The notes beneath the pieces were generated by a model, which worked only from the letters and a program-made list of their open reading frames with translations, was not told where the DNA came from and did not search any database. The position numbers and the translations under genes are program-made. Positions 4,412 through 55,497 of a stretch of DNA of 64,000 bases are shown here, piece after piece (position 1 is the stretch's first letter; the number at the start of each line of letters is the position of its first letter). The stretch lies in assembly GCA_044350705.1 (NCBI GenBank), contig JBILHA010000001.1:49809-113808 (forward strand), in the 5' to 3' direction. The DNA is from Candidatus Kapaibacterium sp. (GTDB lineage: Bacteria; Patescibacteriota; Patescibacteriia; UBA9934).

Positions 4412-7276
4412 ATGTACGACCATGGGAATATTGATGGGAAGTGGCAGAAAAAATGGGAGGATGCAGGAATTTTTCACGCAAAGCTCGATGATGCACGAGA
4501 GAAGTATTATCTCCTCGTAGAATTTCCGTATCCTTCTGGAGCTGGCCTTCACGTAGGGCATCCCCGAAGTTATACCGCGCTTGATGTGATTGCACGTAAG
4601 CGTCGCATGGAGGGGAAGAATGTGTTGTATCCCATTGGTTGGGACGCGTTTGGTTTGCCAGCAGAAAATCATGCGATAAAAACGGGTACTCATCCAGCCA
4701 TAAATACTGCGGAAAATATCAAAACTTTTAAGAAGCAGATTCAGTCGCTTGGTATTTCTTTTGATTGGTCGCGAGAAATTGATACTACCGATCCCAAATA
4801 TTATCGTTGGACACAGTGGATGTTTAACGAATTTTTCCGACAGGGTTTGTGTTATAAGGCAAAGATGCCGATTAATTGGTGTCCAAGTTGCAAAATTGGT
4901 TTGGCAAATGAAGAAGCTGCAGGTGGTGTATGCGAACGCTGTGGAGGGCCTGTAGAGAAAAAAGAAAAGGAGCAATGGATGATTGCCATGACGAAGTATG
5001 CTGATCGTTTGCTTGAAGATTTGAAAACGGTTGATTATCTTCCAAAAATTAAAAAAGAACAGGAGGAGTGGATTGGACGAAGTGAAGGTGCGGAAATTGA
5101 TTTTCGTCTTGAAGAAATCAGCGAAACGATTACGGTATTCACTACCCGTCCCGATACAATTTTTGGCGTAACCTATATTGTTCTTGCGCCTGAACATCCG
5201 CTTGTTGCGCGATTGGTGACCGATGATCAGCGTTCGCATGTTGAAGTATATATTTCTTCTGTTGCTTCAAAGACTGATGACGAACGTGGAGATGCTACCC
5301 GTGAGAAAACGGGAGTGTTTACTGGAGCGTATGCGGTAAATCCGGTGAATGGCGAGCGTGTTCCGGTCTGGATTGCGGATTATGTTCTTGGTGGTTATGG
5401 AACGGGTGCGGTTATGGCGGTTCCTGCGCATGACGTACGCGACTTCGCATTTGCTACGACGTATGAGTTGCCGATTCGTCCTGTTGTTGCAAAGTATTTT
5501 ATGGAAAGTGAAAATCCTCCTCGTGAAGGTTTTCCTACGGTTCGCAGAAAAAATGTTCACGCCATTGTTCGTCGTGCTACCGATGGCGCAGTGCTCATGC
5601 TTCGTTGGAAGGCGAACCAGCGCGCAAGCGGTGCATATCCGCACACGTTTATCGTGGGTGGTATTGAAGAGGGTGAAGATGCACGCGAGGCGGTGCTTCG
5701 TGAGATTGCTGAAGAAACGGGATTGCACCGCGTGCGTTTCGTTTCTGAAGTTCCCGCGATTGTGCATTCGGAATATTTCGCAGGACACAAAGAGCAGAAT
5801 CGATATGCGGAAATTTCCATTCTCTGCTTTGAGGCTGATGGAGATGAAGCATTCGACGTTGCTCCTGAAGAACTCGAGAAGCATGATCCGATTTGGGTTC
5901 TGCCTTCTGATGTTGCTTCAACGGTAAATGTTGCTGAAGGTCCGTATATTTGGGCGCAGGCAGAAAAACCGTTTGCCATGACCGATGCGGGATATGTTAC
6001 AAATTCCGATTTTCTCAACGGACTTTCTACGGAAGATGCAAAGAAGCGTATTGTTGAAGTTCTTGCTGAACGTGGGTGGGGTAGAGCAAAAACAACGTAT
6101 CGCTTGCGTGACTGGGTTTTCTCCCGTCAGCGTTATTGGGGTGAGCCTATTCCGCTTATTCAATGTAAGAACGGATGTTCGCCTGAGACGAACGGCTGGG
6201 TGACGGTTCCCGATGAAGCATTGCCGGTAACGCTTCCGAATGTGGAACGTTATGAACCCACGGATACGGGTGAGTCTCCGCTTTCGGTTATTTCTGATTG
6301 GGTGAATACCACATGTCCTCAATGCGGAGGAGACGCCGTGCGAGAAACGGATACTATGCCGAACTGGGCAGGTTCGAGTTGGTACTTTTTGCGCTATGCT
6401 GATGCGCACAATGATGCGGCATTTGCAAGTAAAGATGCGCTTGCGTATTGGCTTCCTGTTGATTTGTACAATGGAGGCATGGAGCATGCGACGCGTCATT
6501 TGTTGTATGCGCGCTTCTGGACAAAAGTGTTGTTCGATCGGGGGCATTTGCCGTTTTCCGAGTTTTGTCAGCGTCGCGTTGCGCACGGCATGATTCTTGC
6601 GGAAGATGGAACGAAGATGTCGAAGTCGAAAGGAAATGTGGTGAATCCAGACGATGTCGTGAAGGAGCATGGCGCAGATACGTTGCGCGTGTATGAACTT
6701 TTTATTGGTGCGTTTGATGAAGTTGCTTCGTGGTCAACGAATAGCTTGATTGGCGTTCGTCGATTCCTTGATCGCATTACTCGACTGCAAGAAAAAGTTG
6801 GAGGGGAAGATACTGTAGAGATTCAACGTGTTTTGCAAAAGACGTTGCAGAAAGTTACTGATGATATTGAGGGCATGCGGTTTAATACGGCGGTTGCCGC
6901 GCTCATGGCATGTTTGAATGAGTTGCAGTCCGCGCCTTCGCTTTCTCAAGACGCATTCAAGCTTTACTTGCGTATGCTCGTGCCTTTTGCGCCTCACGTT
7001 GCGAATGAGTGTTGGGAGAACATTGGCGGTGAAGGTTTTGTTGAAGCACAGGCATGGCCAGTAGTTAATGCATCGTTGTTGGTTGATGAAGAAGTTACCT
7101 ATGCGGTACAGGTTAACGGAAAAGTGCGTGCGACGCTTGTACTTCCCGCTGACGCACCCGATGACATGATTATTGCTGCAGCAAAAGCAGATGAATATGT
7201 TGCAAAATATTTGGGAGGACAAGAGCCGAAAAAAGTTATCATCATCCCTAAGAAGATTGTGAGTTTCGTGGTGTAG
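4412..7276 (+). CDS. leuS: leucyl-tRNA synthetase with inserted Nudix hydrolase domain
   Basis: HVGH, TTRPDT editing motif, GTGAVMAVPAHD, YRLRDWVFSRQRYWGEPIP, KMSKSKGN. 954 aa, versus about 800-860 for typical bacterial LeuRS. Residues about 360-520 form a Nudix fold with box GGIEEGEDAREAVLREIAEETGL. Confidence 0.95.
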   Translation: MYDHGNIDGKWQKKWEDAGIFHAKLDDAREKYYLLVEFPYPSGAGLHVGHPRSYTALDVIARKRRMEGKNVLYPIGWDAFGLPAENHAIKTGTHPAINTAENIKTFKKQIQSLGISFDWSREIDTTDPKYYRWTQWMFNEFFRQGLCYKAKMPINWCPSCKIGLANEEAAGGVCERCGGPVEKKEKEQWMIAMTKYADRLLEDLKTVDYLPKIKKEQEEWIGRSEGAEIDFRLEEISETITVFTTRPDTIFGVTYIVLAPEHPLVARLVTDDQRSHVEVYISSVASKTDDERGDATREKTGVFTGAYAVNPVNGERVPVWIADYVLGGYGTGAVMAVPAHDVRDFAFATTYELPIRPVVAKYFMESENPPREGFPTVRRKNVHAIVRRATDGAVLMLRWKANQRASGAYPHTFIVGGIEEGEDAREAVLREIAEETGLHRVRFVSEVPAIVHSEYFAGHKEQNRYAEISILCFEADGDEAFDVAPEELEKHDPIWVLPSDVASTVNVAEGPYIWAQAEKPFAMTDAGYVTNSDFLNGLSTEDAKKRIVEVLAERGWGRAKTTYRLRDWVFSRQRYWGEPIPLIQCKNGCSPETNGWVTVPDEALPVTLPNVERYEPTDTGESPLSVISDWVNTTCPQCGGDAVRETDTMPNWAGSSWYFLRYADAHNDAAFASKDALAYWLPVDLYNGGMEHATRHLLYARFWTKVLFDRGHLPFSEFCQRRVAHGMILAEDGTKMSKSKGNVVNPDDVVKEHGADTLRVYELFIGAFDEVASWSTNSLIGVRRFLDRITRLQEKVGGEDTVEIQRVLQKTLQKVTDDIEGMRFNTAVAALMACLNELQSAPSLSQDAFKLYLRMLVPFAPHVANECWENIGGEGFVEAQAWPVVNASLLVDEEVTYAVQVNGKVRATLVLPADAPDDMIIAAAKADEYVAKYLGGQEPKKVIIIPKKIVSFVV

Positions 7277-7378: not shown

Positions 7379-9772
7379 ATGTCGTTTGCGGAGATTCGCC
7401 CAGGGATGTTGTTTGCTTTCATGTGTGGGGGATTCATTCTTGGTATTGCGTTTGCATCTTTTGATGCGCCATGGTGGGTAGGGGGTGGGGTGTTGGGTTT
7501 GGGGTGTTGGGTGTGGTCTCGTCTCTCGCGAAATTCTGACGTGAGAAGGAATTTTGTGTATGTTTTTTTCTCAATCATTTTTTCTTTGTTGGGCTCTTGG
7601 CGTTATCAGGTTATTCAACCAACCCTGCACTCGGTTTCTATGATTGCAGATAAAGAAATGCGAACTCTTGAAGGAACGATCGTTCGTATTCAGGAAAGTG
7701 AATATGGTATTCGTTTAACGCTCAACGATATTGTTGCGCAGGGAAGGAAATTTGAGGATCGCATTTTGGTACGCGTTCCTCTTTTTTCAGAAAGTAGCTT
7801 AGGGGAGCGGGTGAGTATTGATTGTGCGCTGAAGCGGCCGGAACCTTTTGAAGGGTTTGCCTACGATCGGTATCTTGCGGCGAAAGACATTCAAGCGACG
7901 TGTTCAACGCGGGAAGTGCCTTTTGTTCTTGAAGATGAGCGGGGTATCTGGATGGCTTTTTTGCGTACCGTGTATGGGATAAATAGGTTCTCGATCGCAA
8001 TGATTGATCGCGTATTTCCCGATCCTCATGCGCAGTTATTAGCAGGGCTTTTGTTAGGTGATGATGCGTTTTCAGAAGTGTGGAGTGAGCGATTTTTACG
8101 GACGGGAACGTCTCATATTGTTGCGGCGAGTGGATCAAATGTTGCGCTTGTGGTGATGCTCGTGCTTGGAGGCATGTTTCGTGCGTGTATTTCTCGTAAA
8201 TATGCAACGGCGTTCGCGCTCTTTGGCATTTTGTGTTTTGTTTTTTTGGCTGGTGCAGAATCTGCGGTGACGCGTGCAGGAATTATGGCGTCATTTGTCG
8301 TGATATCGCGAGTCTTGGGAAGGGCATCTTCCGTGAGAAATGTTTTGTTGTGCACGGTGTGTATCATGCTTTTTGATGAGCCTCGTATTTTGCGTGACGA
8401 TATTGGTTTTCAACTTTCTGTTTTGTCGACGATTGGGCTTATTTTCTGGGCAAATACTTTTATTGAGTATGTTTCGTTTGTTCCTGAGCGATTCGGACTT
8501 CGTGAAGGGTTTGCGACAACATTGGCTGCGACCTTAGCTACTTTGCCGGTGACGCTTTTTAGCATGGGGCAGATTTCATTCGTAGGGCCACTTGCAAATT
8601 TGCTTGTTTTACCGCTTTTGCCCTTGGCGATGGGACTTGGCACCTTGGCGACTATTGTAGGTATGGTTCATGGAGAAATTGGTCGTTGGATTGCGTTTCC
8701 TGCGTGGTGGATTTTGGATACGATTCTCATGATCTTGAGAGAACTTTCGAGTTTGTCTTTTGTGTATGTGGAAGTGGTGTGGTGGAAAGTAGTGTTTGGG
8801 GTGTTGGGGGTAGGGGGTGGGGTGTGGATTATGCACCTCGTTTTGAGGGTGCTTCATGTCGACCGCTTGCTTGCCTTTCGTGGGAAGAATCTTCAAGAAG
8901 AGCATAGGAAAGAAGACAAGGTGAATGCAGGAGCTGTCCTTGTCCCATGTCTTTTTGTTGTTCTTTTTTTCATATCTTTTGCGCAACATGTTATACGCGA
9001 TGGATGGTTTTCTTCTTCGGTGCGTGTATGGGTTTTTGATGTGGGACAGGGCGACGCAATTTTTATTGATACTCCAGAAAAAGATGTTGTTATTGATGGG
9101 GGGCCATCACCTATTCTTCGAGAGAAAATCGGCATGATGCTTCCGTGGTTTGATCGGCATCTTGATTATGTTTTTGTTACGCACCCTCACGCAGATCATG
9201 TGGTCGGTTTAGTTTCTTTACTTGAGCATTATGGAGTTTCACTTGTGGGAGAGAGTGGACAGGGGTGCTCCTCGTCGGATTGTCGAGCTTTTGATGAGGT
9301 TGTTCACATTTCATCGGCTATTTTGGCGGGAGAAGTTTTTGAACTTGCGCACGGTATTACTCTTCGCGCAGTTTGGCCGCAAGAAAATTATGGGAATAAA
9401 AAACTTTCTGATCCGAATGATGGCTCTTTGGTTTTTGTTTTAGAGACTCCGCATGGGTCTATGCTTCTTACGGGGGATGCGGGTATTGAAGAAGAGCATC
9501 TTTTTATTCCATTACTGCCAGAGAACATTGAGGTATTAAAAGTTGGACATCACGGGAGTAGCACATCTACCTCGTTAGAGCTCCTTGAGGCTATTCGTCC
9601 AGAGTACGGGATTATTTCTTTAGGCGAAGATAATTCGTACGGCCATCCGCATGAAGAGGCGATACAGCATCTTTTAAAATATCATGTAGAGTTTTTTCAA
9701 ACGAATCTTTCCGGAGATATGAAAGTAGAGTTTGGAGAAGAGGGAGTTGAGGTGACATCGTGGCGGTTATAG
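7379..9772 (+). CDS. comEC: DNA internalization competence protein ComEC/Rec2 (membrane domain + metallo-beta-lactamase domain)
   Basis: N-terminal polytopic competence domain. C-terminal MBL domain VWVFDVGQGDAIFIDTPEKDVVIDGGP ... THPHADHVVGL ... GHHGS. Confidence 0.85.
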   Translation: MSFAEIRPGMLFAFMCGGFILGIAFASFDAPWWVGGGVLGLGCWVWSRLSRNSDVRRNFVYVFFSIIFSLLGSWRYQVIQPTLHSVSMIADKEMRTLEGTIVRIQESEYGIRLTLNDIVAQGRKFEDRILVRVPLFSESSLGERVSIDCALKRPEPFEGFAYDRYLAAKDIQATCSTREVPFVLEDERGIWMAFLRTVYGINRFSIAMIDRVFPDPHAQLLAGLLLGDDAFSEVWSERFLRTGTSHIVAASGSNVALVVMLVLGGMFRACISRKYATAFALFGILCFVFLAGAESAVTRAGIMASFVVISRVLGRASSVRNVLLCTVCIMLFDEPRILRDDIGFQLSVLSTIGLIFWANTFIEYVSFVPERFGLREGFATTLAATLATLPVTLFSMGQISFVGPLANLLVLPLLPLAMGLGTLATIVGMVHGEIGRWIAFPAWWILDTILMILRELSSLSFVYVEVVWWKVVFGVLGVGGGVWIMHLVLRVLHVDRLLAFRGKNLQEEHRKEDKVNAGAVLVPCLFVVLFFISFAQHVIRDGWFSSSVRVWVFDVGQGDAIFIDTPEKDVVIDGGPSPILREKIGMMLPWFDRHLDYVFVTHPHADHVVGLVSLLEHYGVSLVGESGQGCSSSDCRAFDEVVHISSAILAGEVFELAHGITLRAVWPQENYGNKKLSDPNDGSLVFVLETPHGSMLLTGDAGIEEEHLFIPLLPENIEVLKVGHHGSSTSTSLELLEAIRPEYGIISLGEDNSYGHPHEEAIQHLLKYHVEFFQTNLSGDMKVEFGEEGVEVTSWRL
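7473..7516. repeat. G-rich element, copy 1 (TAGGGGGTGGGGTGT + TTTGGGGTGTTGGG) inside comEC
   Basis: Exact 13-mer TAGGGGGTGGGGT shared with 8811-8823 and 50928-50940. Confidence 0.7.
8794..8827. repeat. G-rich element, copy 2 inside comEC (sub-motifs in swapped order)
   Basis: TTTGGGGTGTTGGGGG + TAGGGGGTGGGGTGTGG. Confidence 0.7.
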
Positions 9773-17240: not shown

Positions 17241-17855
17241 TTGCATCCGTACCATACGGGGCATATGGATTCTGGAGGCCAATTTGAGCGACTCATTCGT
17301 TTAGTACAAGATACCGGCGAGCGCGTAGTAGTTTCCTTAGGATTAGGAAAGGATCCGGTGGTGCTTCTTCCGCTTTCTACCTACGAAAAGCTTGTACAAG
17401 ACAAGGAAAAGGGAGAAAAGAGGGAGGAACGTGCCTTCGTTGCTCCTGTGTCTCAGCCGTCTGCACCTTCTTCCTCTCCCCCCTCTTTTTCGCTTCCCCC
17501 TCTTTCTCAGCATCTTTCGGCGGGTCCTCGAACCTCATATCGTGCTCCTGATCTTTCCCCAGAAGACTTTTCTCATGAACCTGCTGACGTATGGGATGGA
17601 GAAGGGGGAGGGGATTATGACGCAGAGCGTATTTTTGCTTCTGCAGCTGTTCAGAATGGTTTTAAGCCTCCTTCTTCCTCTTCAGAGGCGGTTCACCCCA
17701 CTCCAAATCGACTTCAGGCATCTATTTCTCGTGCATCTGCAGCGTATGGAAGGCTTCAACAAGAAGGGTGGCGCGTGGGAAATGGGGGGCAGAGATTGCC
17801 TATTCAGGGTGGCGCACTGAAGGATGAGGAGCGTTTCTCGCTTGGCATGGGATAG
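17241..17855 (+). CDS. hypothetical protein, N-terminal Phd/YefM-like fold?, Pro/Ser/Gly-rich disordered tail
   Basis: QFERLIRLVQDTGERVVVSLGLGKDPVVLLPLSTYEKL resembles the antitoxin Phd/YefM pattern. The rest is low complexity. Inserted between fusA and tuf. Confidence 0.45.
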   Translation: MHPYHTGHMDSGGQFERLIRLVQDTGERVVVSLGLGKDPVVLLPLSTYEKLVQDKEKGEKREERAFVAPVSQPSAPSSSPPSFSLPPLSQHLSAGPRTSYRAPDLSPEDFSHEPADVWDGEGGGDYDAERIFASAAVQNGFKPPSSSSEAVHPTPNRLQASISRASAAYGRLQQEGWRVGNGGQRLPIQGGALKDEERFSLGMG

Positions 17856-20531: not shown

Positions 20532-21151
20532 AACTCTATACTTGGCAGGGTGCAGACGCGGGAATGCTTGAGCTTCCTAGCAGTTTGTTCGCGGTTGCAG
20601 TAAAGCCAGCTGTTGTGCACGAGGTTATCGTTGCGCAAGAGGCAAACAGCCGCGTTGTCAGTGCTCACACGAAGGATCGCTCTGAAGTTTCTGGTGGTGG
20701 TAAAAAGCCATGGAAGCAGAAGGGAACAGGTCGTGCTCGTCATGGATCCACTCGTTCTCCTATCTGGGTAGGGGGTGGTGTCGCACATGGTCCTCAGGCA
20801 GATCGTAATTTCTCAAAGAAGGTAAACAAGAAGATGAAGCGCGTAGCTATTGCAATGCTTCTCTCGGATCGTGTTGCCGCTGATGCATTCATTGCGGTGG
20901 ACACCCTTGTTCTTCCTGAAGCAAAGACGAAACTCGTCGCTTCTCTGCGTAAGGCTCTTCCTTGTGCTGAGAAGAATGCGCTCGTTATTCTTGGTTCTTC
21001 TGAACAGGCAATGCAGCGTGCAATTCGCAATCTTGCGAATACCCAAGCAATTGGTGCACGCAGCGTAAATCCTCGTGATCTTGCAAAATTTGGTGCAGTT
21101 ATTGCATCGAAGGCTGCTATTGCTGAAATGGAAGAGACGTTTACCGGCTAA
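20519..21151 (+). CDS. rplD: 50S ribosomal protein L4
   Basis: GGGKKPWKQKGTGRAR motif. Overlaps the rplC stop. Confidence 0.93.
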   Translation: MAQVKLYTWQGADAGMLELPSSLFAVAVKPAVVHEVIVAQEANSRVVSAHTKDRSEVSGGGKKPWKQKGTGRARHGSTRSPIWVGGGVAHGPQADRNFSKKVNKKMKRVAIAMLLSDRVAADAFIAVDTLVLPEAKTKLVASLRKALPCAEKNALVILGSSEQAMQRAIRNLANTQAIGARSVNPRDLAKFGAVIASKAAIAEMEETFTG

Positions 21152-32428: not shown

Positions 32429-33202
32429 ATGTGGTTTTCTCAAAAAACGGAAGCGATTATCTTGACCGTCCATCCCTGGAAAGAAGCGGATAAGCGGTAT
32501 GTTGCGCTGACTCGTGATTGCGGAAAGGTTGAGTTTATTGGACGCGGTGCACGGAAGGGGAAGGCAAAGCTTGCGGCGCATTTAGAGCCTTTTGCTCGCG
32601 TGCAACTGGAACTTGTTGTTGGTCGTCGGCAAACGACCGTTATTGGCGTTGAGCGTCTCGAGCATTTTTCTGGAATTGCGTATTCGCTTGAACACCGATT
32701 GGTTGCACAAGCGGCATCTTCCTTGCTTGATAAGACGTTGTATGTTGATCAGGTAGATGCGCATTTGTATTCAGAACTTTCCTCGTTCCTCCTTTTTTTG
32801 CATGGAACGGAAACGCTTTCTTCTGCTCGTGGCGCATTTGTTCTTGGAGGCTTTTTACTTCGCCTTATGCGACATTTGGGATACGAGACAGAATTGCATG
32901 CGTGTTTAGGGTGCCAAGATGCTATTCAGCCGCTTTCGTTTCGTTGGCATGATGCACGGGGAGGGCTTGTGTGCACAACGTGTTTACTTGATAAGCAAAA
33001 AGAGTGGGTAACTGCGCGAAGAATTGATGAGGAAATCGTCACATTGTTGCGTTTTGCGCGCGATGCGGGATATGAGGATTTAATGAAGGCTGGGCTTCGG
33101 GGGGAGCATTTGGAGCATTTTTCATCATGTGTTCATGATTTGTTGAGAATTCATGTTCCTGGGTATGTAGATAGGCCGTATTGGGAGATGGTTGTTGTGT
33201 GA
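32429..33202 (+). CDS. recO: DNA repair protein RecO
   Basis: OB-fold N-domain. C4 zinc finger CLGCQ ... CTTC. GGAGGAG Shine-Dalgarno. Confidence 0.85.
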   Translation: MWFSQKTEAIILTVHPWKEADKRYVALTRDCGKVEFIGRGARKGKAKLAAHLEPFARVQLELVVGRRQTTVIGVERLEHFSGIAYSLEHRLVAQAASSLLDKTLYVDQVDAHLYSELSSFLLFLHGTETLSSARGAFVLGGFLLRLMRHLGYETELHACLGCQDAIQPLSFRWHDARGGLVCTTCLLDKQKEWVTARRIDEEIVTLLRFARDAGYEDLMKAGLRGEHLEHFSSCVHDLLRIHVPGYVDRPYWEMVVV

Positions 33203-33247
33203 TGGGAGTGAGGGGAGTGATGGGAGTAAAGGGAGTAGGGGGAGTGG
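33203..33247. repeat. five tandem 9-bp G-rich repeats (RRDGGGAGT); G-quadruplex-capable (six GGG runs)
   Basis: gatgggagt gaggggagt gatgggagt aaagggagt agggggagt ggg, read directly. Confidence 0.7.
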
Positions 33248-33334: not shown

Positions 33335-33528
33335 AGACGCTTGAGGCGATTTGAACACCGCCGAGTCCGGGAAAGAAATTCTTTGTCGTAAGATGAGAAG
33401 AGTAGAATCCTGCGGGTTGCGCCCGTTAGCGCGTAGAAGAGTACAAAGTAAGGTGGCACCGCGGAGAAATTCGCCCTTACATGATCGTGATGTTTGAACA
33501 TCGTGATTTTGTAAGAGCGATTTTTTTA
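33335..33528 (+). promoter_or_regulatory. T-box riboswitch-like leader upstream of asnS
   Basis: F-box CCGTTA (33423-33428). Two AGTA boxes. T-box sequence AGGTGGCACCGCGG (33451-33464). Terminator cgcccttaca ... tgtaagagcg + T7 (33472-33527). AAC followed by A is present in the stem I region. Confidence 0.6.
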
Positions 33529-40629: not shown

Positions 40630-40706
40630 CGCAGGGTGGAGCAACCAGGCAGCTCGCCGGGCTCATAACCCGGAGGTTACAGGTTCAAATCCTGTCCCTG
40701 CAACCA
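40630..40706 (+). tRNA. tRNA-fMet (initiator, anticodon CAU)
   Basis: C1xA72 mismatch. Three consecutive G-C pairs closing the anticodon stem (GGG/CCC). T-loop GGTTCAAATCC. CCA encoded. Confidence 0.9.
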
Positions 40707-40740
40707 CAAAAACCTCTCATTTGTTGAGAGGTTTTTGTTA
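40707..40740 (+). terminator. intrinsic terminator after tRNA-fMet
   Basis: aacctctca-tttgt-tgagaggtt followed by tttt. Confidence 0.65.
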
Positions 40741-40762
40741 TGCATGACGTATTTCGTCTATT

Positions 40763-40791
40763 AAAAAAATCCGAATTTCTTCGGATTTTTT
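40763..40791 (-). terminator. intrinsic terminator after the minus-strand tRNA pair (bidirectional hairpin)
   Basis: A-run, atccgaa-tttct-tcggat, T-run; abuts the tRNA-Met 3' end. Confidence 0.6.
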
Positions 40792-40868
40792 TGGTGGCTG
40801 GGGCCGGGATCGAACCGGCGACCTAAGGCTTATGAGTCCTTCGCTCTAACCAACTGAGCTACCCAGCC
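40792..40868 (-). tRNA. tRNA-Met (anticodon CAU; elongator, or Ile2 if lysidinylated)
   Basis: Cloverleaf GGCTGGG ... CTCATAA ... GGTTCGATCC ... CCCAGCCACCA. Confidence 0.85.
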
Positions 40869-40872
40869 AAAG

Positions 40873-40959
40873 TGGTGCCTTGGGAGGGACTCGAACCCTC
40901 AATCCATTGCTGGAAACGGATTTTGAGTCCGTCGCGTATACCAATTCCGCCACCAAGGC
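40873..40959 (-). tRNA. tRNA-Leu (anticodon CAA)
   Basis: 87 nt with long variable arm. Anticodon loop CTCAAAA. T-loop GGTTCGAGTCC. CCA encoded. Confidence 0.88.
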
Positions 40960-44813: not shown

Positions 44814-47800
44814 ATGGCGAAAAAAAAGAAACTTCAGCGAGAAGGATCAACTTCTCCAGAGCAAGAAATCATTTCTCCTGAGATGAAATTTCTTCAAGAA
44901 GCTTTGGTGCGAGCGCGAGAAGCTGCTGCTTTTGCGATGCGGTCTAAAGATGTTACCGGTGTTAGTTCTTCTATCCGGAAGATGTATGAGTCGAGAAGAG
45001 GGCAGCTTGAACAAGATGCTTTGGAACTTGCCGAATACATGAAATTAGGAAAGACTTTAGATCCTTCTTCTTTCAGGTTTCACTATAATAAGTTCATGTT
45101 ATATGCAGATCGCGTGCTTCACGATCCGAGTTTGCAGCAATTAGGGGAAGATTTTTTTGGAGTGCCCACGTCTGCAGAGGGGGCATCTCAGCAAGAGCAA
45201 GATGTTGATCGTCAGGAGGGGAAGAGGGTTGCTCGGGAAGAGCGCAGTTCTGATGCGCAGAAGATACGAAGAGAGCTTGATCGCGTGCAGGGAGTTGTTG
45301 CTGATATTCACGGGATGGAGAGGCGTGCTCAGGCGTTGCTTGAGCAAGCTTTACAGGGCCCTTTTGCGGGGGATGAAAGTTTTATAGCCCGTTTACGGGA
45401 GCATTTTTCTCAGCTTACGCTCCAGCGAGAGAATGCTGGGCATTTGTACGCGGATGTAGAGGAGCGAGGACGCTCATTGTCGCCTGAAGAACGTGCCTCT
45501 TTTCTTGAAGAAGTGCATGCCCTTTCTTTTGTGGAATTTCAGCAGAAAGCAGGCGAGATCCTGCGAGATCTGCAGCAAGAGATCGCTTTGCAGCGTGGTC
45601 TCTTGCATGATCGTATTGACGTACTTTTTCAATCATTTTCTGAGCAGAAAAAGCAAAAAGCAACGGCGCTCATGAAGCAAGTTAAAGCTGCCGAAAAGCA
45701 GCAAAATGATCAACGTCTTTTTGCGCTTTTTGAAAAACTTCAAGATCTTTCACGTGAAGAAGATGCAAAGGGAGAGGAAGTTCCTGAAAATGCAGACTTG
45801 CTCGTCTCCGCGCCTGTCGAGAAAAGTGCTGCCTCAGGGGGTGTTGAGAACGTGCCTTTGTTTGCCAGTTTGCGTTTTGGGAAGTCGGGAATGGGCATTC
45901 CCGAGACTTTTTTCCAAGATCCTGCGCTCCGTGCTCGTATACGCGCTGCGGAGGAATTTGATGCTCCTGAGCAGGAGCCGGAAGTGAAGCAGCGACGAGA
46001 GCGGAAAGAGATCCCTTCCGAAGACCGTCAGCTCCTTGAGGCGTTTTTGGAAAAAGACTTTGAGGAAACCGTTGAAACATATGGAGAGGCCGAGCTTGTG
46101 GCGGTTGCGCGAGTGCTTGTTCGCGCGCGCAAGAAGAGATTTATTGCTTCCGACGCGCTGCTTACGCGGGCGAGGGAGCGATTTTCTTCGTTGATGGGGG
46201 GATGGGCTCCTGAGGCCGCTCTTGCGGCGTATGATGAATATCAAGCGACGCTGACTCTGCGCGGGGAGGAAGGGCGTGCTTCCTCCGCTGATTCTCCAAG
46301 GGAAGATCGAGTAGGGGCAGAGTCTTCTGACGGGGAGATTGATTCTCTTGTTTTTCAAGAGGATGATGCAGCGATGCGGGTGGATTTTGCTCTTCACGTG
46401 CAAGATGCTGAGATTTCATCTGAGGAAGTAGAGGAGCGAAAGAAGCGTGTTACCAGTATTTTACAGAGTCTTTCTTCGCGTACTTTATGGAAACCAGATC
46501 TTGTTCTTTCTGGTGATGAGCAAGCGCTTGCAGCCATGGATCTTGATGCAGAGCGTCGTAATTATCTTCGCGCACAGCTTTTCTTAAATGGTACTGAGGA
46601 AGGGTTGTTTTTCCAGCGCATTTTGGCCCAGGCTCGAAATGAAGCTGCTGTTCGCGAGCGGATGATTTCTCTTCTTTTGGAAGTGCAGGGTCTTACTCCC
46701 ACGCAGCGGCGTATGGTTTTTGAGCAAGAACTCTTACCCACCCCGGTTGTGGTAGAGGAAGAGCAGGAGGGGTCTTCGCCTGAGGCTCGCGAAGAAGAGG
46801 GCTCTCCGGCTGATCAGACGCCAAAGCCTGAAGAGGCGCAGCAGGATGAAGCTCCTTCTTCAGAGGGGCGCGCATCTGTTTCAGGAGGATCGGGAAATGT
46901 TCCCCCTCCACCTTCTGAGCCAGGACCTGTACCGCCGTTTGAAGAAGGAGAAAGAGGAGAGCGGGGGAAGAGGGAGGAGAAGGAGTCTCTTTTTGCGCGT
47001 ATGCGGAAGTGGACGAAGGAGCGTGCGCGCGAATTTGAGGATACTGATATTTATCGCGTGCATATTAAGGGAGAAAAGACGCTTCGTGAATTGCGAGGAG
47101 ATGCGCCTACGCTTTCTCCGAAGGTTATGCTTGCGGCAGGTATTGGGTCTGCAGCGATGAGTTATTTTGGTGCGGCTTTTCCGGTTGATGCCTTACGGTA
47201 TGCAACACAGCGTCACTTTGTAGGAAAGGAACGTGATGAAATGTCTCGAGCATTCCATGAGGCATTTGCGCGGCGAAGGAGGGAAGGGGAAGTGAGTGAT
47301 CAAGAACGGGTACGCGAGCGTCAGCAGGCGCTTCGATCTCGTGTCGAATCATCTCGTTATCTCACCCATGCCCAGAAACAGGATTTGCTCGATCAACTTT
47401 TTGCTCAAGAAGAGACTCTCGCAGCTCAAGTTTCTCCTCGGCATGAGTATCTCACTAGAGAGGTTGGGCGTATTTTGGAGCATGCTATTCGTACTCGTGT
47501 TTCGGGTGAGAAGGTTGTGAAAGAGGGGCTGAATACGACGTTTATGCTTACTGGCTTCCATATGCTTCGGGCGCCGGCATATGGTGCGGTGTCCATTTAT
47601 GAGCGTTGGAATCGGTTGACGCGTGAGAGGCCTGAATCATCTGCTGGAGAACGTTTGCGGTCTACGTTCGCAGGAGGTTTCCAGGATTGGTGGAGTCGTG
47701 CAAAGGGGGAGAGCGGCCGTATGGCGCAGGCTGCAGCCTTTGGTACTGCGGCACGATTTGTCGGCATGAGCATGGTTGGATACGAGGCTTTGGGGGGTTC

Positions 47801-48416
47801 AGGTATCTCGGAGCTGTTTGCTGCTTGGGAACGGAAAGAATCTCTCTATCCATCGCAGGATTCCGATCTTTCCGGTCGTTCTTTGGAGGAGCTTGCTTCA
47901 GGGCAGCGTGAACAGGTGTCTTTGCCCCAGAAGGAATCGAATTCCGCGGGAGTCTCAATTCCGGAACCTTTGTTTAGCGATGTTTTTTCTGATGACGTGC
48001 GTGCAGAGGGGAGCGCGGGACTCTCTCAGCTTGAAGCTCCCCTTTCCGAGAACGCTTCTTCCGAGATTGTTCTTTCGCCTGACCGTATCCCTTCCGAAGC
48101 TCTTGTGAGCAAGGGGGATGGGATTACCCAAGTTCTTCTTTCGGGTATTGAGGCGCGTCCCGATCTTCTGCGTGCCGCTGATCAATCCGTACTTCAGGAT
48201 GATTATGCCTCCGCTCTCTTTTTGAAGCGTCTTGCTGCCAAGGAAGGATTGTTGGATTATTGGGTGAACGATCAAGCGATCGGAGAATTAGCGATTGTGC
48301 CTACCTATGATGCTGCTGGTGAGCTTCATATTTCTTTCTTAAACCCTGAAAGTGGGAGTGCTTATTCTCTCGAGGAATTGAAAGAAATGGGGTGGCTTAC
48401 CAAGGCCTCTCATTAA
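44814..48416 (+). CDS. large hypothetical protein (1200 aa, charged/low-complexity, ORFan-like)
   Basis: Long uninterrupted ORF rich in E/R/A. Pro/Gly-rich linker with PPPPSEPGPVPP. Two short hydrophobic segments. No recognisable domain. Confidence 0.55.
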   Translation: MAKKKKLQREGSTSPEQEIISPEMKFLQEALVRAREAAAFAMRSKDVTGVSSSIRKMYESRRGQLEQDALELAEYMKLGKTLDPSSFRFHYNKFMLYADRVLHDPSLQQLGEDFFGVPTSAEGASQQEQDVDRQEGKRVAREERSSDAQKIRRELDRVQGVVADIHGMERRAQALLEQALQGPFAGDESFIARLREHFSQLTLQRENAGHLYADVEERGRSLSPEERASFLEEVHALSFVEFQQKAGEILRDLQQEIALQRGLLHDRIDVLFQSFSEQKKQKATALMKQVKAAEKQQNDQRLFALFEKLQDLSREEDAKGEEVPENADLLVSAPVEKSAASGGVENVPLFASLRFGKSGMGIPETFFQDPALRARIRAAEEFDAPEQEPEVKQRRERKEIPSEDRQLLEAFLEKDFEETVETYGEAELVAVARVLVRARKKRFIASDALLTRARERFSSLMGGWAPEAALAAYDEYQATLTLRGEEGRASSADSPREDRVGAESSDGEIDSLVFQEDDAAMRVDFALHVQDAEISSEEVEERKKRVTSILQSLSSRTLWKPDLVLSGDEQALAAMDLDAERRNYLRAQLFLNGTEEGLFFQRILAQARNEAAVRERMISLLLEVQGLTPTQRRMVFEQELLPTPVVVEEEQEGSSPEAREEEGSPADQTPKPEEAQQDEAPSSEGRASVSGGSGNVPPPPSEPGPVPPFEEGERGERGKREEKESLFARMRKWTKERAREFEDTDIYRVHIKGEKTLRELRGDAPTLSPKVMLAAGIGSAAMSYFGAAFPVDALRYATQRHFVGKERDEMSRAFHEAFARRRREGEVSDQERVRERQQALRSRVESSRYLTHAQKQDLLDQLFAQEETLAAQVSPRHEYLTREVGRILEHAIRTRVSGEKVVKEGLNTTFMLTGFHMLRAPAYGAVSIYERWNRLTRERPESSAGERLRSTFAGGFQDWWSRAKGESGRMAQAAAFGTAARFVGMSMVGYEALGGSGISELFAAWERKESLYPSQDSDLSGRSLEELASGQREQVSLPQKESNSAGVSIPEPLFSDVFSDDVRAEGSAGLSQLEAPLSENASSEIVLSPDRIPSEALVSKGDGITQVLLSGIEARPDLLRAADQSVLQDDYASALFLKRLAAKEGLLDYWVNDQAIGELAIVPTYDAAGELHISFLNPESGSAYSLEELKEMGWLTKASH

Positions 48417-48465: not shown

Positions 48466-50720
48466 TTTCGAAAGGTTTTTTTAGGTGATCCTGCTTTTTT
48501 TACCAGGAGTTCTATTGCCTGTTCGAGGGTAACGCTTGTCGGTTCTATTTTTTTTGGAATCGTTGCATTTATTTTTCCATCTGTTACATAGGGGCCGAAT
48601 TTCCCGTCTTTTACGAGAATTTCTGCTCCTGTTTCTGGATGCTTGCCAAGATTTGCGAGGGGAGTAAGCATCTTTTGTTTTCGTTCCTTTGCTTCGCTCA
48701 TGATGCGGAGAGCCTCTTCTAGGCTTACTGTACGTGGGTCAACGCCTGGAGGAAGGGATGCATTTACTGTTCCTGCTTTGAGATACGGGCCGAAGCGTCC
48801 ATCGTTTGCGATTATTTCTTCTCCTTCCGCGTTCTTTCCTAGTATCCGTGGAAGTACCAGAGCCTGCAGTGCATCTTCTAAGGTTACGGTATCTACCATT
48901 GCTTCTTTGGGAAGGCTTGCACGACGTGGTTTTTCTTTTCCCTCTTCCTCCTCACCAATTTGTACATACGGGCCGAAGCGCCCTGTTTGTACGTAGACCG
49001 GTAGTCCAGAGGCGGGATCTTCTCCGAGAAGGCGCTTCTTGTTTATTGCTTCCCGCGTCAGTTCTTTGGTTTTTTCTTCGATGGCATTATGAAAGGGACT
49101 GTAGAAGCTTGAGAGTACGTTGTGCCATTCCTGTGTTCCTTCCGCAATTTCATCGAGTTTGTTTTCCATGGATGCGGTAAACTCGTAGTTTACGATGTCA
49201 GGAAAATGATCTTTCAGAAGATCTGAGACGATAAATGCGATATCTACTGGCTGTAAGCGGTTATTATCATCACGCATGATATAGCCGCGATCCGTAATGG
49301 TGGCTATGGTAGGCGCATACGTAGAAGGACGTCCAATTCCGTGCTCTTCAAGTGCCTTTACGAGTGTTGCGTCAGAATACCGGGCAGGAGGCTCGGTAGT
49401 ATGTTTTTCCGAGCGTACTTCAGTGGGGGATCCAATCTCCTCCTTTTCTTTGAGATCGGGGAGGATTTTATCATCAGCAGCTTTCCATACCTTCATGTAC
49501 CCAGGGAATACTACAGTCGCTCCTGTGGCGCGGAAGGTCATGTCTTCGGCGGTGAGATCGATTCCTGTACGGCGAATGCGTGCAGGAGGCAGCTGTGAGG
49601 CAAGGGTACGGCGCCAAATGAGGTCATAGAGCTTTTTCATGCCTGGTTCAGCGTCTGATGCCTTGAATGCTTCTCCCGATAGTGAAATGTCTGTTGGGCG
49701 GATTGCCTCGTGGGCTTCTTGAGCACCTTTTTTATTTGTTTTATAGCGTACTGCTCCTTTGGCAAATTCTGTGCCAAAATTTTGCGCGACGTAGGCTTGG
49801 GTCGCCGTGAGGAATTCTTCGCTGAGGTTGGTGGAGTCGGTACGCATGTAGGTAATGCGCCCGGTTTCGTACAGGCGTTGTGCGAGCGTCATGGTTTGTT
49901 TGGCGCTCATGCCAAGGCGGTTGTACGCTTCTTGTTGAAGTGTAGAGGTGGTGAGAGGTACGGGACTCTTTTTCTGTACCTCCTTCTGTTCTACCGATGA
50001 AACGACGAAAGATGCTTTTCGTGCGGCTTCGGCAATGCGGTTTGAGATTTCTTCATTGTTTAGTTCTGTTTTTTCAAGTGATTTTCCACTCAGGGCAGAC
50101 AGCTTTGCTTCAAAAGGACTGCCATCTTTTTGAAAGGTGGCATCAATGGTCCAATAATCCTGGGAAACGAACGCTTGTCGTTCGCGTTCTCTTTCCACGA
50201 TCATGCGTACTGCGACGGACTGTACACGTCCCGCAGAAAGACCTCTGCGAATTTTTTTCCACAGGAGCGGAGAGAGCTCGTAACCCACCAAACGATCAAG
50301 AATGCGACGTGTTTGTTGTGCGTCGACAAGCTTTGTATCTATCGTGCGTGCTTCTTTGAGTGCTCGATCAATGGCTGATTTGGTGATTTCGTGAAAGGTG
50401 ATTCGTTTTGCTTTTTCTGGTTTCATTTTCAGTACTTCTGCAATGTGCCATGCGATTGCTTCCCCTTCTCGGTCTTCGTCAGTTGCAAGATAGATTTCAT
50501 CGGCTTTTTTTGCGGCGTCCTGGAGCGCTTTTACCTTTGCTTTTTTTTCTGCCGGAACTTCATATGTCGGCTCAAAGCCGTTTTTTACATCTACCCCGAG
50601 TTTTCTCGCAGGAAGATCTCGAATATGCCCAAACGAGGAGAGGACTTCATAGCCTTTCCCAAGGAATTTATTAATGGTTTTTGCTTTGGTTGGTGACTCA
50701 ACAATGAGAAGAATGCTCAT
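48444..50720 (-). CDS. topA: DNA topoisomerase I
   Basis: TOPRIM MSILLIVESPTKAKTI. Catalytic Tyr region. C-terminal GRFGPY repeat domains. Confidence 0.92.
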   Translation of the reverse strand: MSILLIVESPTKAKTINKFLGKGYEVLSSFGHIRDLPARKLGVDVKNGFEPTYEVPAEKKAKVKALQDAAKKADEIYLATDEDREGEAIAWHIAEVLKMKPEKAKRITFHEITKSAIDRALKEARTIDTKLVDAQQTRRILDRLVGYELSPLLWKKIRRGLSAGRVQSVAVRMIVERERERQAFVSQDYWTIDATFQKDGSPFEAKLSALSGKSLEKTELNNEEISNRIAEAARKASFVVSSVEQKEVQKKSPVPLTTSTLQQEAYNRLGMSAKQTMTLAQRLYETGRITYMRTDSTNLSEEFLTATQAYVAQNFGTEFAKGAVRYKTNKKGAQEAHEAIRPTDISLSGEAFKASDAEPGMKKLYDLIWRRTLASQLPPARIRRTGIDLTAEDMTFRATGATVVFPGYMKVWKAADDKILPDLKEKEEIGSPTEVRSEKHTTEPPARYSDATLVKALEEHGIGRPSTYAPTIATITDRGYIMRDDNNRLQPVDIAFIVSDLLKDHFPDIVNYEFTASMENKLDEIAEGTQEWHNVLSSFYSPFHNAIEEKTKELTREAINKKRLLGEDPASGLPVYVQTGRFGPYVQIGEEEEGKEKPRRASLPKEAMVDTVTLEDALQALVLPRILGKNAEGEEIIANDGRFGPYLKAGTVNASLPPGVDPRTVSLEEALRIMSEAKERKQKMLTPLANLGKHPETGAEILVKDGKFGPYVTDGKINATIPKKIEPTSVTLEQAIELLVKKAGSPKKTFRKRKTSSR

Positions 50721-51804
50721 ACGGCACAAGGGTGTAGCGCCCGTTTTTTAACGCAAGATATCCTTCAATTTCCCAGATATTGAGAATTCCTGCAACTTCA
50801 GACGCTTTTTCTTGCGCATATTCTACCAGGGAATCAAAAGATCGTGGTTGCTGGAGAAGATTCCAGAGTTTTTGTTGAAGCGGTGAAAGAGGAGGGGGAG
50901 GTGATGGGGGAGTAGGGGTGGAGGGTGTAGGGGGTGGGGTTTGGGGTATGGGTATCTCGAGAAAATCATGAATAGACGTGCAGAGTCCCGCTCCTTCTTT
51001 TATGAGTGCATGACACCCCTCGCTTACGGGGCTCGTAATGGGCCCGGGTATGGCAAACACCTCTCTATTTTCCTTGAGTGCCTGATATCCCGTAATGAGA
51101 GATCCACTTTTTTTCTTTGCTTCCACGATGAGTGTTCGTTCGGCGATTCCTGCGATGAGTCGATTTCTGATGGGGAAGTGATATTTTTGTGGATGAAAAG
51201 CAGGGGGTCTCTCGCTTATGATTCCCCCGTTCCCTTCGAGGATCCTTTTTGCGATTTCTTGTTCTCGAGAGTTGAGCGCAAGGTGGCCTCCTGCAAGAAC
51301 TACCAGGATGTTGCCTCCTGCAGCGTGTGCACCTCGAATGGCATGTTCATCTATGCCGTAGGCGAGTCCTGAAATTACCCCTCTTTGTTGGAGGGCTACT
51401 GCCTTTCCAAACTTCCACGCCTGTTCTTTGCCGTATGCTGATGCTTCACGAGCTCCTACGATTGCGCACCACGTAATTCCTGGACAAATTTTACCCTTTA
51501 AAAAGAGTACGAGGGGAGGATCGTGAATTTCCTTGAGCAGGGGAGGGTATCTTGTGTCATTTCTTGCAATACAAGTCACGCCGTTTTCCTCGATTTCTTT
51601 TTTGTATGTTTCAGGAGCTTGTATGGTTCTCCAGGAGAGAAAACTTTTCCTCCACTGAATATGTTTTGGGAACCACTCCTCTAATGCTTCGGCAGAAGCG
51701 ATGAAAAGATGAGAGCGATCGTGTACTCGATGTGCGACTTCTCGCGCGATGCTTGGCGACCAGTGCGGAGAAAAAGTAAGTGCAATGTCGTGAATGAGAC
51801 TCAT
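50698..51804 (-). CDS. dprA: DNA processing protein DprA/Smf
   Basis: Rossmann-like DprA core IVGAREASAYG ... GLAYGIDEHAIRGA. Pro-rich linker and C-terminal winged-helix extension. 3' end overlaps topA (smf-topA arrangement). Confidence 0.85.
   Translation of the reverse strand: MSLIHDIALTFSPHWSPSIAREVAHRVHDRSHLFIASAEALEEWFPKHIQWRKSFLSWRTIQAPETYKKEIEENGVTCIARNDTRYPPLLKEIHDPPLVLFLKGKICPGITWCAIVGAREASAYGKEQAWKFGKAVALQQRGVISGLAYGIDEHAIRGAHAAGGNILVVLAGGHLALNSREQEIAKRILEGNGGIISERPPAFHPQKYHFPIRNRLIAGIAERTLIVEAKKKSGSLITGYQALKENREVFAIPGPITSPVSEGCHALIKEGAGLCTSIHDFLEIPIPQTPPPTPSTPTPPSPPPPLSPLQQKLWNLLQQPRSFDSLVEYAQEKASEVAGILNIWEIEGYLALKNGRYTLVPYEHSSHC
50891..50953. repeat. G-rich element, copy 3, antisense to the dprA Pro-rich linker
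   Basis: ggagggggaggtgatgggggagtaggggtggagggtgtagggggtggggtttggggtatggg. Confidence 0.7.
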
Positions 51805-55349: not shown

Positions 55350-55497
55350 ACCGCTATGAAGAAGTATACCTTATCAGAAAGGCGTGAAAATAGGGAGAGA
55401 GTAAGGTGTTGGAGGAGAAAGTGGATAGCGGGAGGGATGGGGAGTGGGGGTGTGTTATTCTGAATAAAATTCTTTTTCCTCCTTAATATAAGGAAAT

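Follow-up and report, generated by a model that had tools for sequence, protein, structure and literature searches.

A G-rich word shared by comEC and dprA as a probable by-product of strand-biased low-complexity tracts

G-rich tracts in comEC, dprA, and elsewhere

The 64-kb window, by which we mean the whole stretch of DNA that was analyzed, carries a comEC gene on the plus strand (7379-9772; DUF4131, Competence, and Lactamase_B domains) and a dprA gene on the minus strand (50698-51804; 368 aa; DNA_processg_A, PF02481). A 13-mer, TAGGGGGTGGGGT, is found in exactly three exact copies in the window, at 7479, 8811, and 50928, all on the plus strand; two of them lie in comEC in the sense orientation and one lies antisense in dprA. 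All three share the 14-mer GTAGGGGGTGGGGT, the only 14-mer of the window with three occurrences, and for the comEC copies at 7479 and 8811 the identity extends to an 18-mer. Near copies are present on the same strand at 20769 (one mismatch) and 42601 (two mismatches), and GTAGGGGGTGG occurs four times in the 64 kb, each time on the G-rich strand.

The dprA copy (50928-50940) is part of a plus-strand G-run cluster at 50879-50953 that is antisense to the linker codons and comprises eight runs of at least three G (47 G and 1 C in 75 nt; G4Hunter maximum, 2.64). An earlier reading of this DNA, made from the sequence only, had placed a 63-nt G-rich string at 50891-50953 on the plus strand, antisense to the Pro-rich linker of dprA; this string was located there and indeed holds the exact 13-mer. 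Read on the minus strand, the tract encodes PQTPPPTPSTPTPPSPPPP, and the linker reads ...IPQTPPPTPSTPTPPSPPPPLSP..., with codons made up almost completely of C, A, and T. In the protein, it corresponds to a hypervariable Pro/Ser/Thr linker that joins the Rossmann-like domain to the C-terminal domain. The length and sequence of this linker differ in each close relative in our DprA alignment (A1), and in distant relatives it is short. At the DNA level, the tract is identical in three independent assemblies (100% over 17-21 kb around dprA). A 1200-aa open reading frame (ORF) without a Pfam match lies between relA/spoT and topA (44814-48416, plus strand); relatives keep it in the same place, with a length of 1162 to 1375 aa.

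In comEC, tract 1 (7466-7516, plus strand; 13-mer at 7479-7491) encodes PWWVGGGVLGLGCWVW in an N-terminal membrane helix, and tract 2 (8791-8833, plus strand; 13-mer at 8811-8823) encodes VVFGVLGVGGGVWIM in the last helix of the Competence domain. Both copies of the word are used in the same reading frame, GTA GGG GGT GGG GTG (VGGGV), within WWVGGGVLGLGCWVW and VVFGVLGVGGGVWIM. The two tracts share three modules of 18, 15, and 12 nt in permuted order, and tract 1 shows an imperfect 7/14-nt periodicity as detected by TRF. In the ComEC alignment (A2), both tracts map to the membrane helices with the lowest conservation and cause no net insertion. A strain of 96.7% nucleotide identity (L253) carries an extra, imperfect 21-nt in-frame unit in tract 1, which there reads VGSGVLG followed by VGGGVLG; the two units differ at 3 of 21 positions. 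Since this unit is in frame, the tracts can be considered length-unstable without loss of the frame. Across the alignment of about 14.7 kb, no other coding indel spans more than one codon. In one relative (L129), a stretch of 20 nt at the orthologous tract 2 site is identical to the window. Conservation of the tract 2 word at the DNA level was considered for this relative and rejected, because equally long runs elsewhere point to ordinary homology: the same comEC gene pairs have identical runs of 17-23 nt at other places, and 47-52% of their identical residues share a codon. An ortholog from another relative uses an alternative spelling for VGGGV (GTG GGG GGT GGA GTT). The leucyl-tRNA synthetase gene at 4412-7276 (plus strand) has a NUDIX match (PF00293) inside the synthetase domains, as it does in two relatives (L130 and L131).

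Elsewhere in the window, a copy with one mismatch, GGGTAGGGGGTGGTGT, lies in the gene for ribosomal protein L4 (rplD) at 20766-20781 on the plus strand, where it encodes a conserved WVGGGV motif. Looser G-rich relatives had been reported near 33203-33247 and 55429-55455, and both are present. The first is an intergenic 9-nt tandem repeat (GAKGGGAGT-like; 5.3 copies by TRF) at 33199-33246 on the plus strand, with its start at the recO stop codon and a T-box-like asnS leader 130 nt downstream of it; it is G-rich (G4Hunter, 1.80) but its sequence is unrelated to the 13-mer. The second is an intergenic G-run cluster at 55421-55458 on the plus strand (G4Hunter, 2.28), between the divergent LytR_cpsA_psr (minus) and SIMPL (plus) genes, and at this place no G-run cluster is kept in the relatives L126 or L128. 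The T-box proposed for asnS is only a sub-threshold Rfam match (33374-33481, plus strand; E = 2.9e-6), with 35.8 bits against a gathering score of 93 bits, but the canonical T-box sequence AAGGTGGCACCGCG is present. The leader at 33374-33481 keeps a terminator-like hairpin besides the T-box sequence and may be a shortened T-box. With Rfam at gathering thresholds, no match overlaps any tract.

Beyond the source genome, the word was found in a relative's assembly (GCA_964414795.1, L177), in a Wzy_C/O-antigen-ligase-like gene, where it encodes ELGILGVGGGVLGVV. This gene shares 22-23 nt with the comEC sites, the genes themselves not being homologous, and in the source genome's own Wzy_C ortholog the word is absent. 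GCA_964414795.1 (L127 and L177) is titled "uncultured Gammaproteobacteria bacterium," but its gene order and proteins match the CPR-like genome studied here, and the label is probably wrong. When public metagenome contigs were scanned for the 14-mer, the matches listed were scattered single matches in unrelated metagenomes. Likewise, an 18-nt degenerate pattern that fits all three sites was scattered over many phyla among at least 120 matches in public genome contigs. Among the matches listed, several Thermoanaerobaculia MAGs and filamentous cyanobacteria (Moorena, Symploca, and Oscillatoria) contain this pattern many times per genome, which suggests that these organisms have G-rich repeat families of their own.

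Strand asymmetry and G-run clusters

The plus strand of the window contains 17536 G versus 13061 C, with a positive skew in all 2-kb bins, also where the genes lie on the minus strand. For the curated gene list, the GC3 skew on the coding strand is +0.286 in plus-strand genes and -0.376 in minus-strand genes, so that the skew at synonymous sites follows the chromosome strand rather than the gene strand. Given these opposite signs, G and T are enriched on the plus strand whichever the orientation of the gene. The amino acid composition differs as well: Gly and Val are more frequent in plus-strand genes, and Pro, Thr, Ile, Lys, Asn, and His are more frequent in minus-strand genes. Among Val-GGG codon pairs in plus-strand genes, 9 of 17 are GTA-GGG. 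The window is contained without any difference in a 462-kb JGI metagenome contig, and its sequence also recurs in a 532-kb contig and in Logan assemblies. On the JGI contig, the skew is negative about 130 kb away (122-143 kb in the coordinates of that contig) and positive at 261-334 kb. From this change of sign we infer two replichores, in which the plus strand of the window would be the leading strand. Three tRNA genes (one plus, two minus) lie just upstream of parA/parB at 40630-40959 of the window, where the skew keeps its sign, and parAB thus does not sit at the skew switch. The same contig has a high-GC island at about 131-137 kb (L252, 9000-15000; 56-63% versus about 48%). It includes a 696-aa ORF without a Pfam match that adjoins six tandem T4SS_pilin (PF18895) genes, an arrangement kept in a relative (L254).

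Canonical G-run clusters, defined as at least four runs of G3+ with loops of 1-7 nt, number seven on the plus strand and zero on the minus strand of the window, with 0.4-0.6 expected under Markov models of order 1, 3, and 5; by this rule, all five sites named in the sequence-only reading are clusters. G4Hunter gives the same picture (24 plus versus 2 minus at a score of at least 1.5, and 6 versus 0 at a score of at least 2.0), and the named tracts score highest, the maxima at the four strongest being 2.48, 2.92, 2.64, and 2.28. The periodicities that TRF detects in the tracts are 7, 9, and 14 nt and are imperfect (79-90% matches), and no G run in the tracts is longer than 5. In relatives, clusters are likewise in excess on one strand, but at different positions; L126-L128 have 0, 1, and 0, and L130/L131 have 3 and 6. 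A protein of 196-206 aa encoded between fusA and tuf, without a confident Pfam match, has G-run clusters of its own in several relatives; the site in the window is 17589-17613, and L131 has three clusters (20869-21146). An excess of G4 motifs on the leading strand, in step with GC skew, has been reported across bacteria (Quadrupia catalogue, PMC12581993).

Origin of the recurrent word

The recurrence of TAGGGGGTGGGGT exceeds chance under every null that we ran. At up to two mismatches, there are 5 matches in the window versus 0.67 expected, and 0 of 100 shuffles reach 5. A three-way word of at least 14 nt was obtained in 0 of 5000 mononucleotide shuffles and 0 of 5000 dinucleotide shuffles of the whole tracts, and in 3 of 20000 permutations of G-runs and spacers as tokens (P about 1.5e-4); these tests on the three-way word are post hoc. 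For the 18-mer common to both comEC tracts, P is about 2e-3 under the same token shuffling. A control is provided by the 12-mer TTCTCAGGAGCG, which is not G-rich and has four plus-strand copies (21873, 27658, 30869, and 62748), all in one frame and encoding SQER in unrelated genes (L2, S5, methionine aminopeptidase, and an RNase_H_2-like protein). Extended to a 13-mer with a final T, it still has three copies, and the window contains four 13-mers with at least three copies where a Markov-3 model predicts 0.25. Because this SQER word and other 13-mers recur similarly, shuffling nulls understate the recurrence in this codon-biased genome. This calls for caution in annotation, since exact short repeats in small genomes that are strongly skewed and codon biased fail standard shuffling nulls without being elements.

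We favor, with a probability of roughly 0.6, the view that the 13-mer is a by-product of strand-biased, G-rich low-complexity tracts in weakly constrained segments and not a discrete element. Strand-biased low-complexity sequence in such segments is an already known kind of feature. The tracts are located in weakly constrained membrane helices, an inter-domain linker, and intergenic spacers, and comEC tracts 1 and 2 and the dprA tract coincide with the least conserved columns of the protein alignments. The membrane helices at these places need only small or hydrophobic residues, and the dprA linker is disordered. Presumably, segments of this kind have drifted toward the codons favored on their strand. 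In sense-strand genes, the tracts use G/T-only codons, giving Gly, Val, Trp, Leu, Cys, and Phe (e.g., VGGGVLG), and in antisense genes they use C/A-rich codons, giving Pro and Thr (e.g., TPPPT). The tracts have probably lengthened and shortened via slippage or short tandem duplication, with the risk of frameshifts presumably holding G runs at 5 or fewer. Runs of four or five G spaced by T, TA, or TGT, combined with recurrent VGGGV and with GTA-GGG pairs, could then make the same 13- to 18-mers recur. There appears to be no obligatory DNA word, since VGGGV is recoded in a relative, the source genome's own Wzy_C gene is without the word, and the match in L129 is ordinary. If the tracts arise in this way, one type of G-rich DNA yields Gly/Val membrane helices on one strand and Pro/Thr linkers on the other, and mutational strand bias creates quadruplex-prone, length-unstable spots inside comEC and dprA.

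Several observations do not fit easily with the word being a by-product. The three-way 14-mer and the two-way 18-mer are improbable even under token shuffling, and 22-23 nt including the word are found in a non-homologous gene of a relative. GGG accounts for only 16% of Gly codons in plus-strand genes, so that general codon bias does not predict GGG-rich tracts. Neutral drift alone would not give 62% G, as intergenic DNA is only 25% G. Peptide and codon bias cannot explain the dprA copy, which lies in another frame and on the other coding strand. The exact three-way recurrence is only partly explained, and the dprA copy is the part that remains unexplained. The scope of these counts in the source genome is about 93 kb (the 64-kb window plus 8 kb and 21 kb) of a genome of roughly 0.5 Mb. 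Judging by this size and by the best named homologs, which are Patescibacteria/Uhrbacteria proteins, the organism probably belongs to the Patescibacteria/CPR.

Possibly, the word has been copied between G-rich tracts, either by short-patch ectopic gene conversion or by template switching at quadruplex-stalled replication forks, in which case all three copies, together with that in the relative's Wzy_C gene, would share descent at the DNA level. The recurrence in excess of all composition and token nulls argues for such copying, as do the three permuted modules that the comEC sites share, the 22-23 nt in the non-homologous Wzy_C gene, and the single orientation of all copies. However, the identity is confined to the low-complexity core, concerted change of two tracts is seen in no relative, the word in comEC tract 2 is vertically inherited (L129 has the same 20 nt in the orthologous position), and the SQER control reaches a comparable recurrence without copying. 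We consider copying unlikely on balance.

A regulatory G-quadruplex had also been suggested, and of this suggestion the motif stands, with no indication of a regulatory role. At the sequence level it is supported that the tracts are quadruplex-prone by motif rules (canonical motifs of four G3+ runs; G4Hunter, 2.3-2.9), with no sign of positional selection. That they are selected elements acting on the replication, transcription, or translation of comEC, dprA, or their neighbors is similarly unlikely. It would be consistent with the short loops, with a frequency more than 10-fold over expectation, with the location of one tract (55421-55458) in a divergent promoter region, and with the predicted stabilization of comEC mRNA in the ViennaRNA G4 model (-25.5 versus -11.2 and -35.7 versus -10.2 kcal/mol). 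In contrast, orientation is tied to the chromosome strand and not to transcription, the G runs being in the sense strand of comEC and in the template strand of dprA; the positions are unconserved in relatives with the same gene order; and the tracts occupy the least constrained parts of the proteins. Moreover, this type of strand bias generally correlates with GC skew (PMC12581993).

Less probable still is a combination of these ideas, in which GGGTAGGGGGTGGGGTGT would form quadruplexes, be specific to the clade, and owe its presence on one strand to active propagation or maintenance. Such a word would spread via template switching or gene conversion between stalled G-tracts, or be kept by selection, and would insert wherever VGGGV (in helices) or TPPPT (in linkers) is tolerated. 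If true, its propagation would explain why the word is present in genes that are not homologous, in two genomes with ortholog identities of only about 55%. A word that is propagated or selected would constitute a small dispersed element in organisms thought to be dependent on DNA uptake.

A role of the tracts as contingency loci, with frameshifts turning comEC or dprA on and off, is very improbable. The sequence-only reading had considered a recombination or phase-variation substrate; slippage or recombination is supported by the 21-nt unit of L253, but an on/off switch is not. The length of comEC tract 1 does differ between strains, but the variant is in frame, 21 nt long, and imperfect (3/21 differences between units). 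G runs are at most 5, and the tracts contain neither a long perfect homopolymer nor a short-unit repeat with a unit length other than a multiple of 3. Over 21 kb including the dprA tract, three independent assemblies show no difference, and among the strains and assemblies compared there is no frameshifting length variation, the in-frame 21 nt being the sole variant.

Equally remote is the idea that the core acts like Chi or KOPS, as a polar motif oriented with replication. The core is G-rich and all four GTAGGGGGTGG copies are on the G-rich strand, but known polar motifs have a length of 5-8 nt and occur at a far higher density, and no 6- to 10-mer of the window is over-represented relative to a maximal-order Markov model. 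NTA-GGG dicodons in plus-strand genes account for the orientation bias of TAGGGG. As a candidate in its own right, the TAGGGG enrichment (17 versus 1) was dismissed: it reflects NTA-GGG dicodons in one frame and is no commoner than other NNGGGG contexts. Two further candidates were also dropped. Insertion of a mobile mini-element was rejected as the tracts add no length relative to the orthologs, and for a diversity-generating retroelement target or a CRISPR array no reverse transcriptase, template repeat, or spaced array was seen.

The least tenable proposal, refuted on density and strand distribution, is that the word serves as a DNA uptake signal sequence and has become enriched because the ComEC machinery takes up DNA with a sequence bias. 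It had been put forward as an uptake-sequence-like element on account of its presence in two competence genes. Known uptake sequences inside genes occupy poorly conserved protein segments, and the present sites resemble them in this respect. However, the density check that had been suggested genome-wide gives 3 copies in the 64 kb and 0 in a further 29 kb (8 kb adjoining the window on the left and 21 kb from another part of the contig), i.e., 3 copies in 93 kb, which is far below the rate of about 1 per kb of known uptake sequences. Both orientations, or inverted pairs at gene ends, were not found: the exact and near copies are all on the plus strand, with three of them within coding sequence, and no two form a pair. 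The 13-mer and its 11-mer core are absent from about 110 kb of syntenic DNA of six relatives (L126-L131), homologous loci included, whose DprA and ComEC proteins are 52-60% and 58-63% identical to those of the source, respectively. The link to competence genes does not hold up either, as the nearest extra copy is in ribosomal protein L4 and the relative's copy is in a Wzy_C gene. The scattered singletons over many phyla among the matches listed from public collections also speak against an uptake signal.

Comparison with known systems

The uptake sequences of Pasteurellaceae (USS) and Neisseriaceae (DUS) share with the present word that a short exact sequence lies inside genes, including competence genes, in weakly conserved segments. 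The word described here differs in a density lower by well over an order of magnitude, in its single orientation, in relatives that are without it, and in having no terminator-like inverted pairs. The G4 upstream of Neisseria pilE is a recombination-initiating quadruplex at a single conserved noncoding site tied to one recombination system. It resembles our tracts in its G3-4/T-loop sequence and similar composition, whereas here several tracts are found, mostly coding and unconserved.

Cryptically simple or low-complexity coding sequence shows the same imperfect short periodicities, unconserved segments, and in-frame length polymorphism between close strains, although the present tracts consist of irregular combinations of G-runs and spacers rather than a clean microsatellite. 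In Borrelia and other strongly skewed genomes, replication-strand asymmetry shapes codon and amino acid usage. The opposite signs of the GC3 skew, with Gly and Val on one strand and Pro, Thr, Ile, Lys, and Asn on the other, are shared with that type of asymmetry. Here, however, it takes an extreme local form, with whole helices built from G/T-only codons and a linker from C/A/T-only codons. Finally, as in the pattern described in the Quadrupia catalogue (PMC12581993), G4 clusters lie nearly all on the strand with G excess, and relatives with the same skew behave likewise. What sets the present case apart from that pattern is that the genome is tiny and probably of the CPR type, that the clusters reside mostly in coding low-complexity segments, and that one exact word recurs among them.
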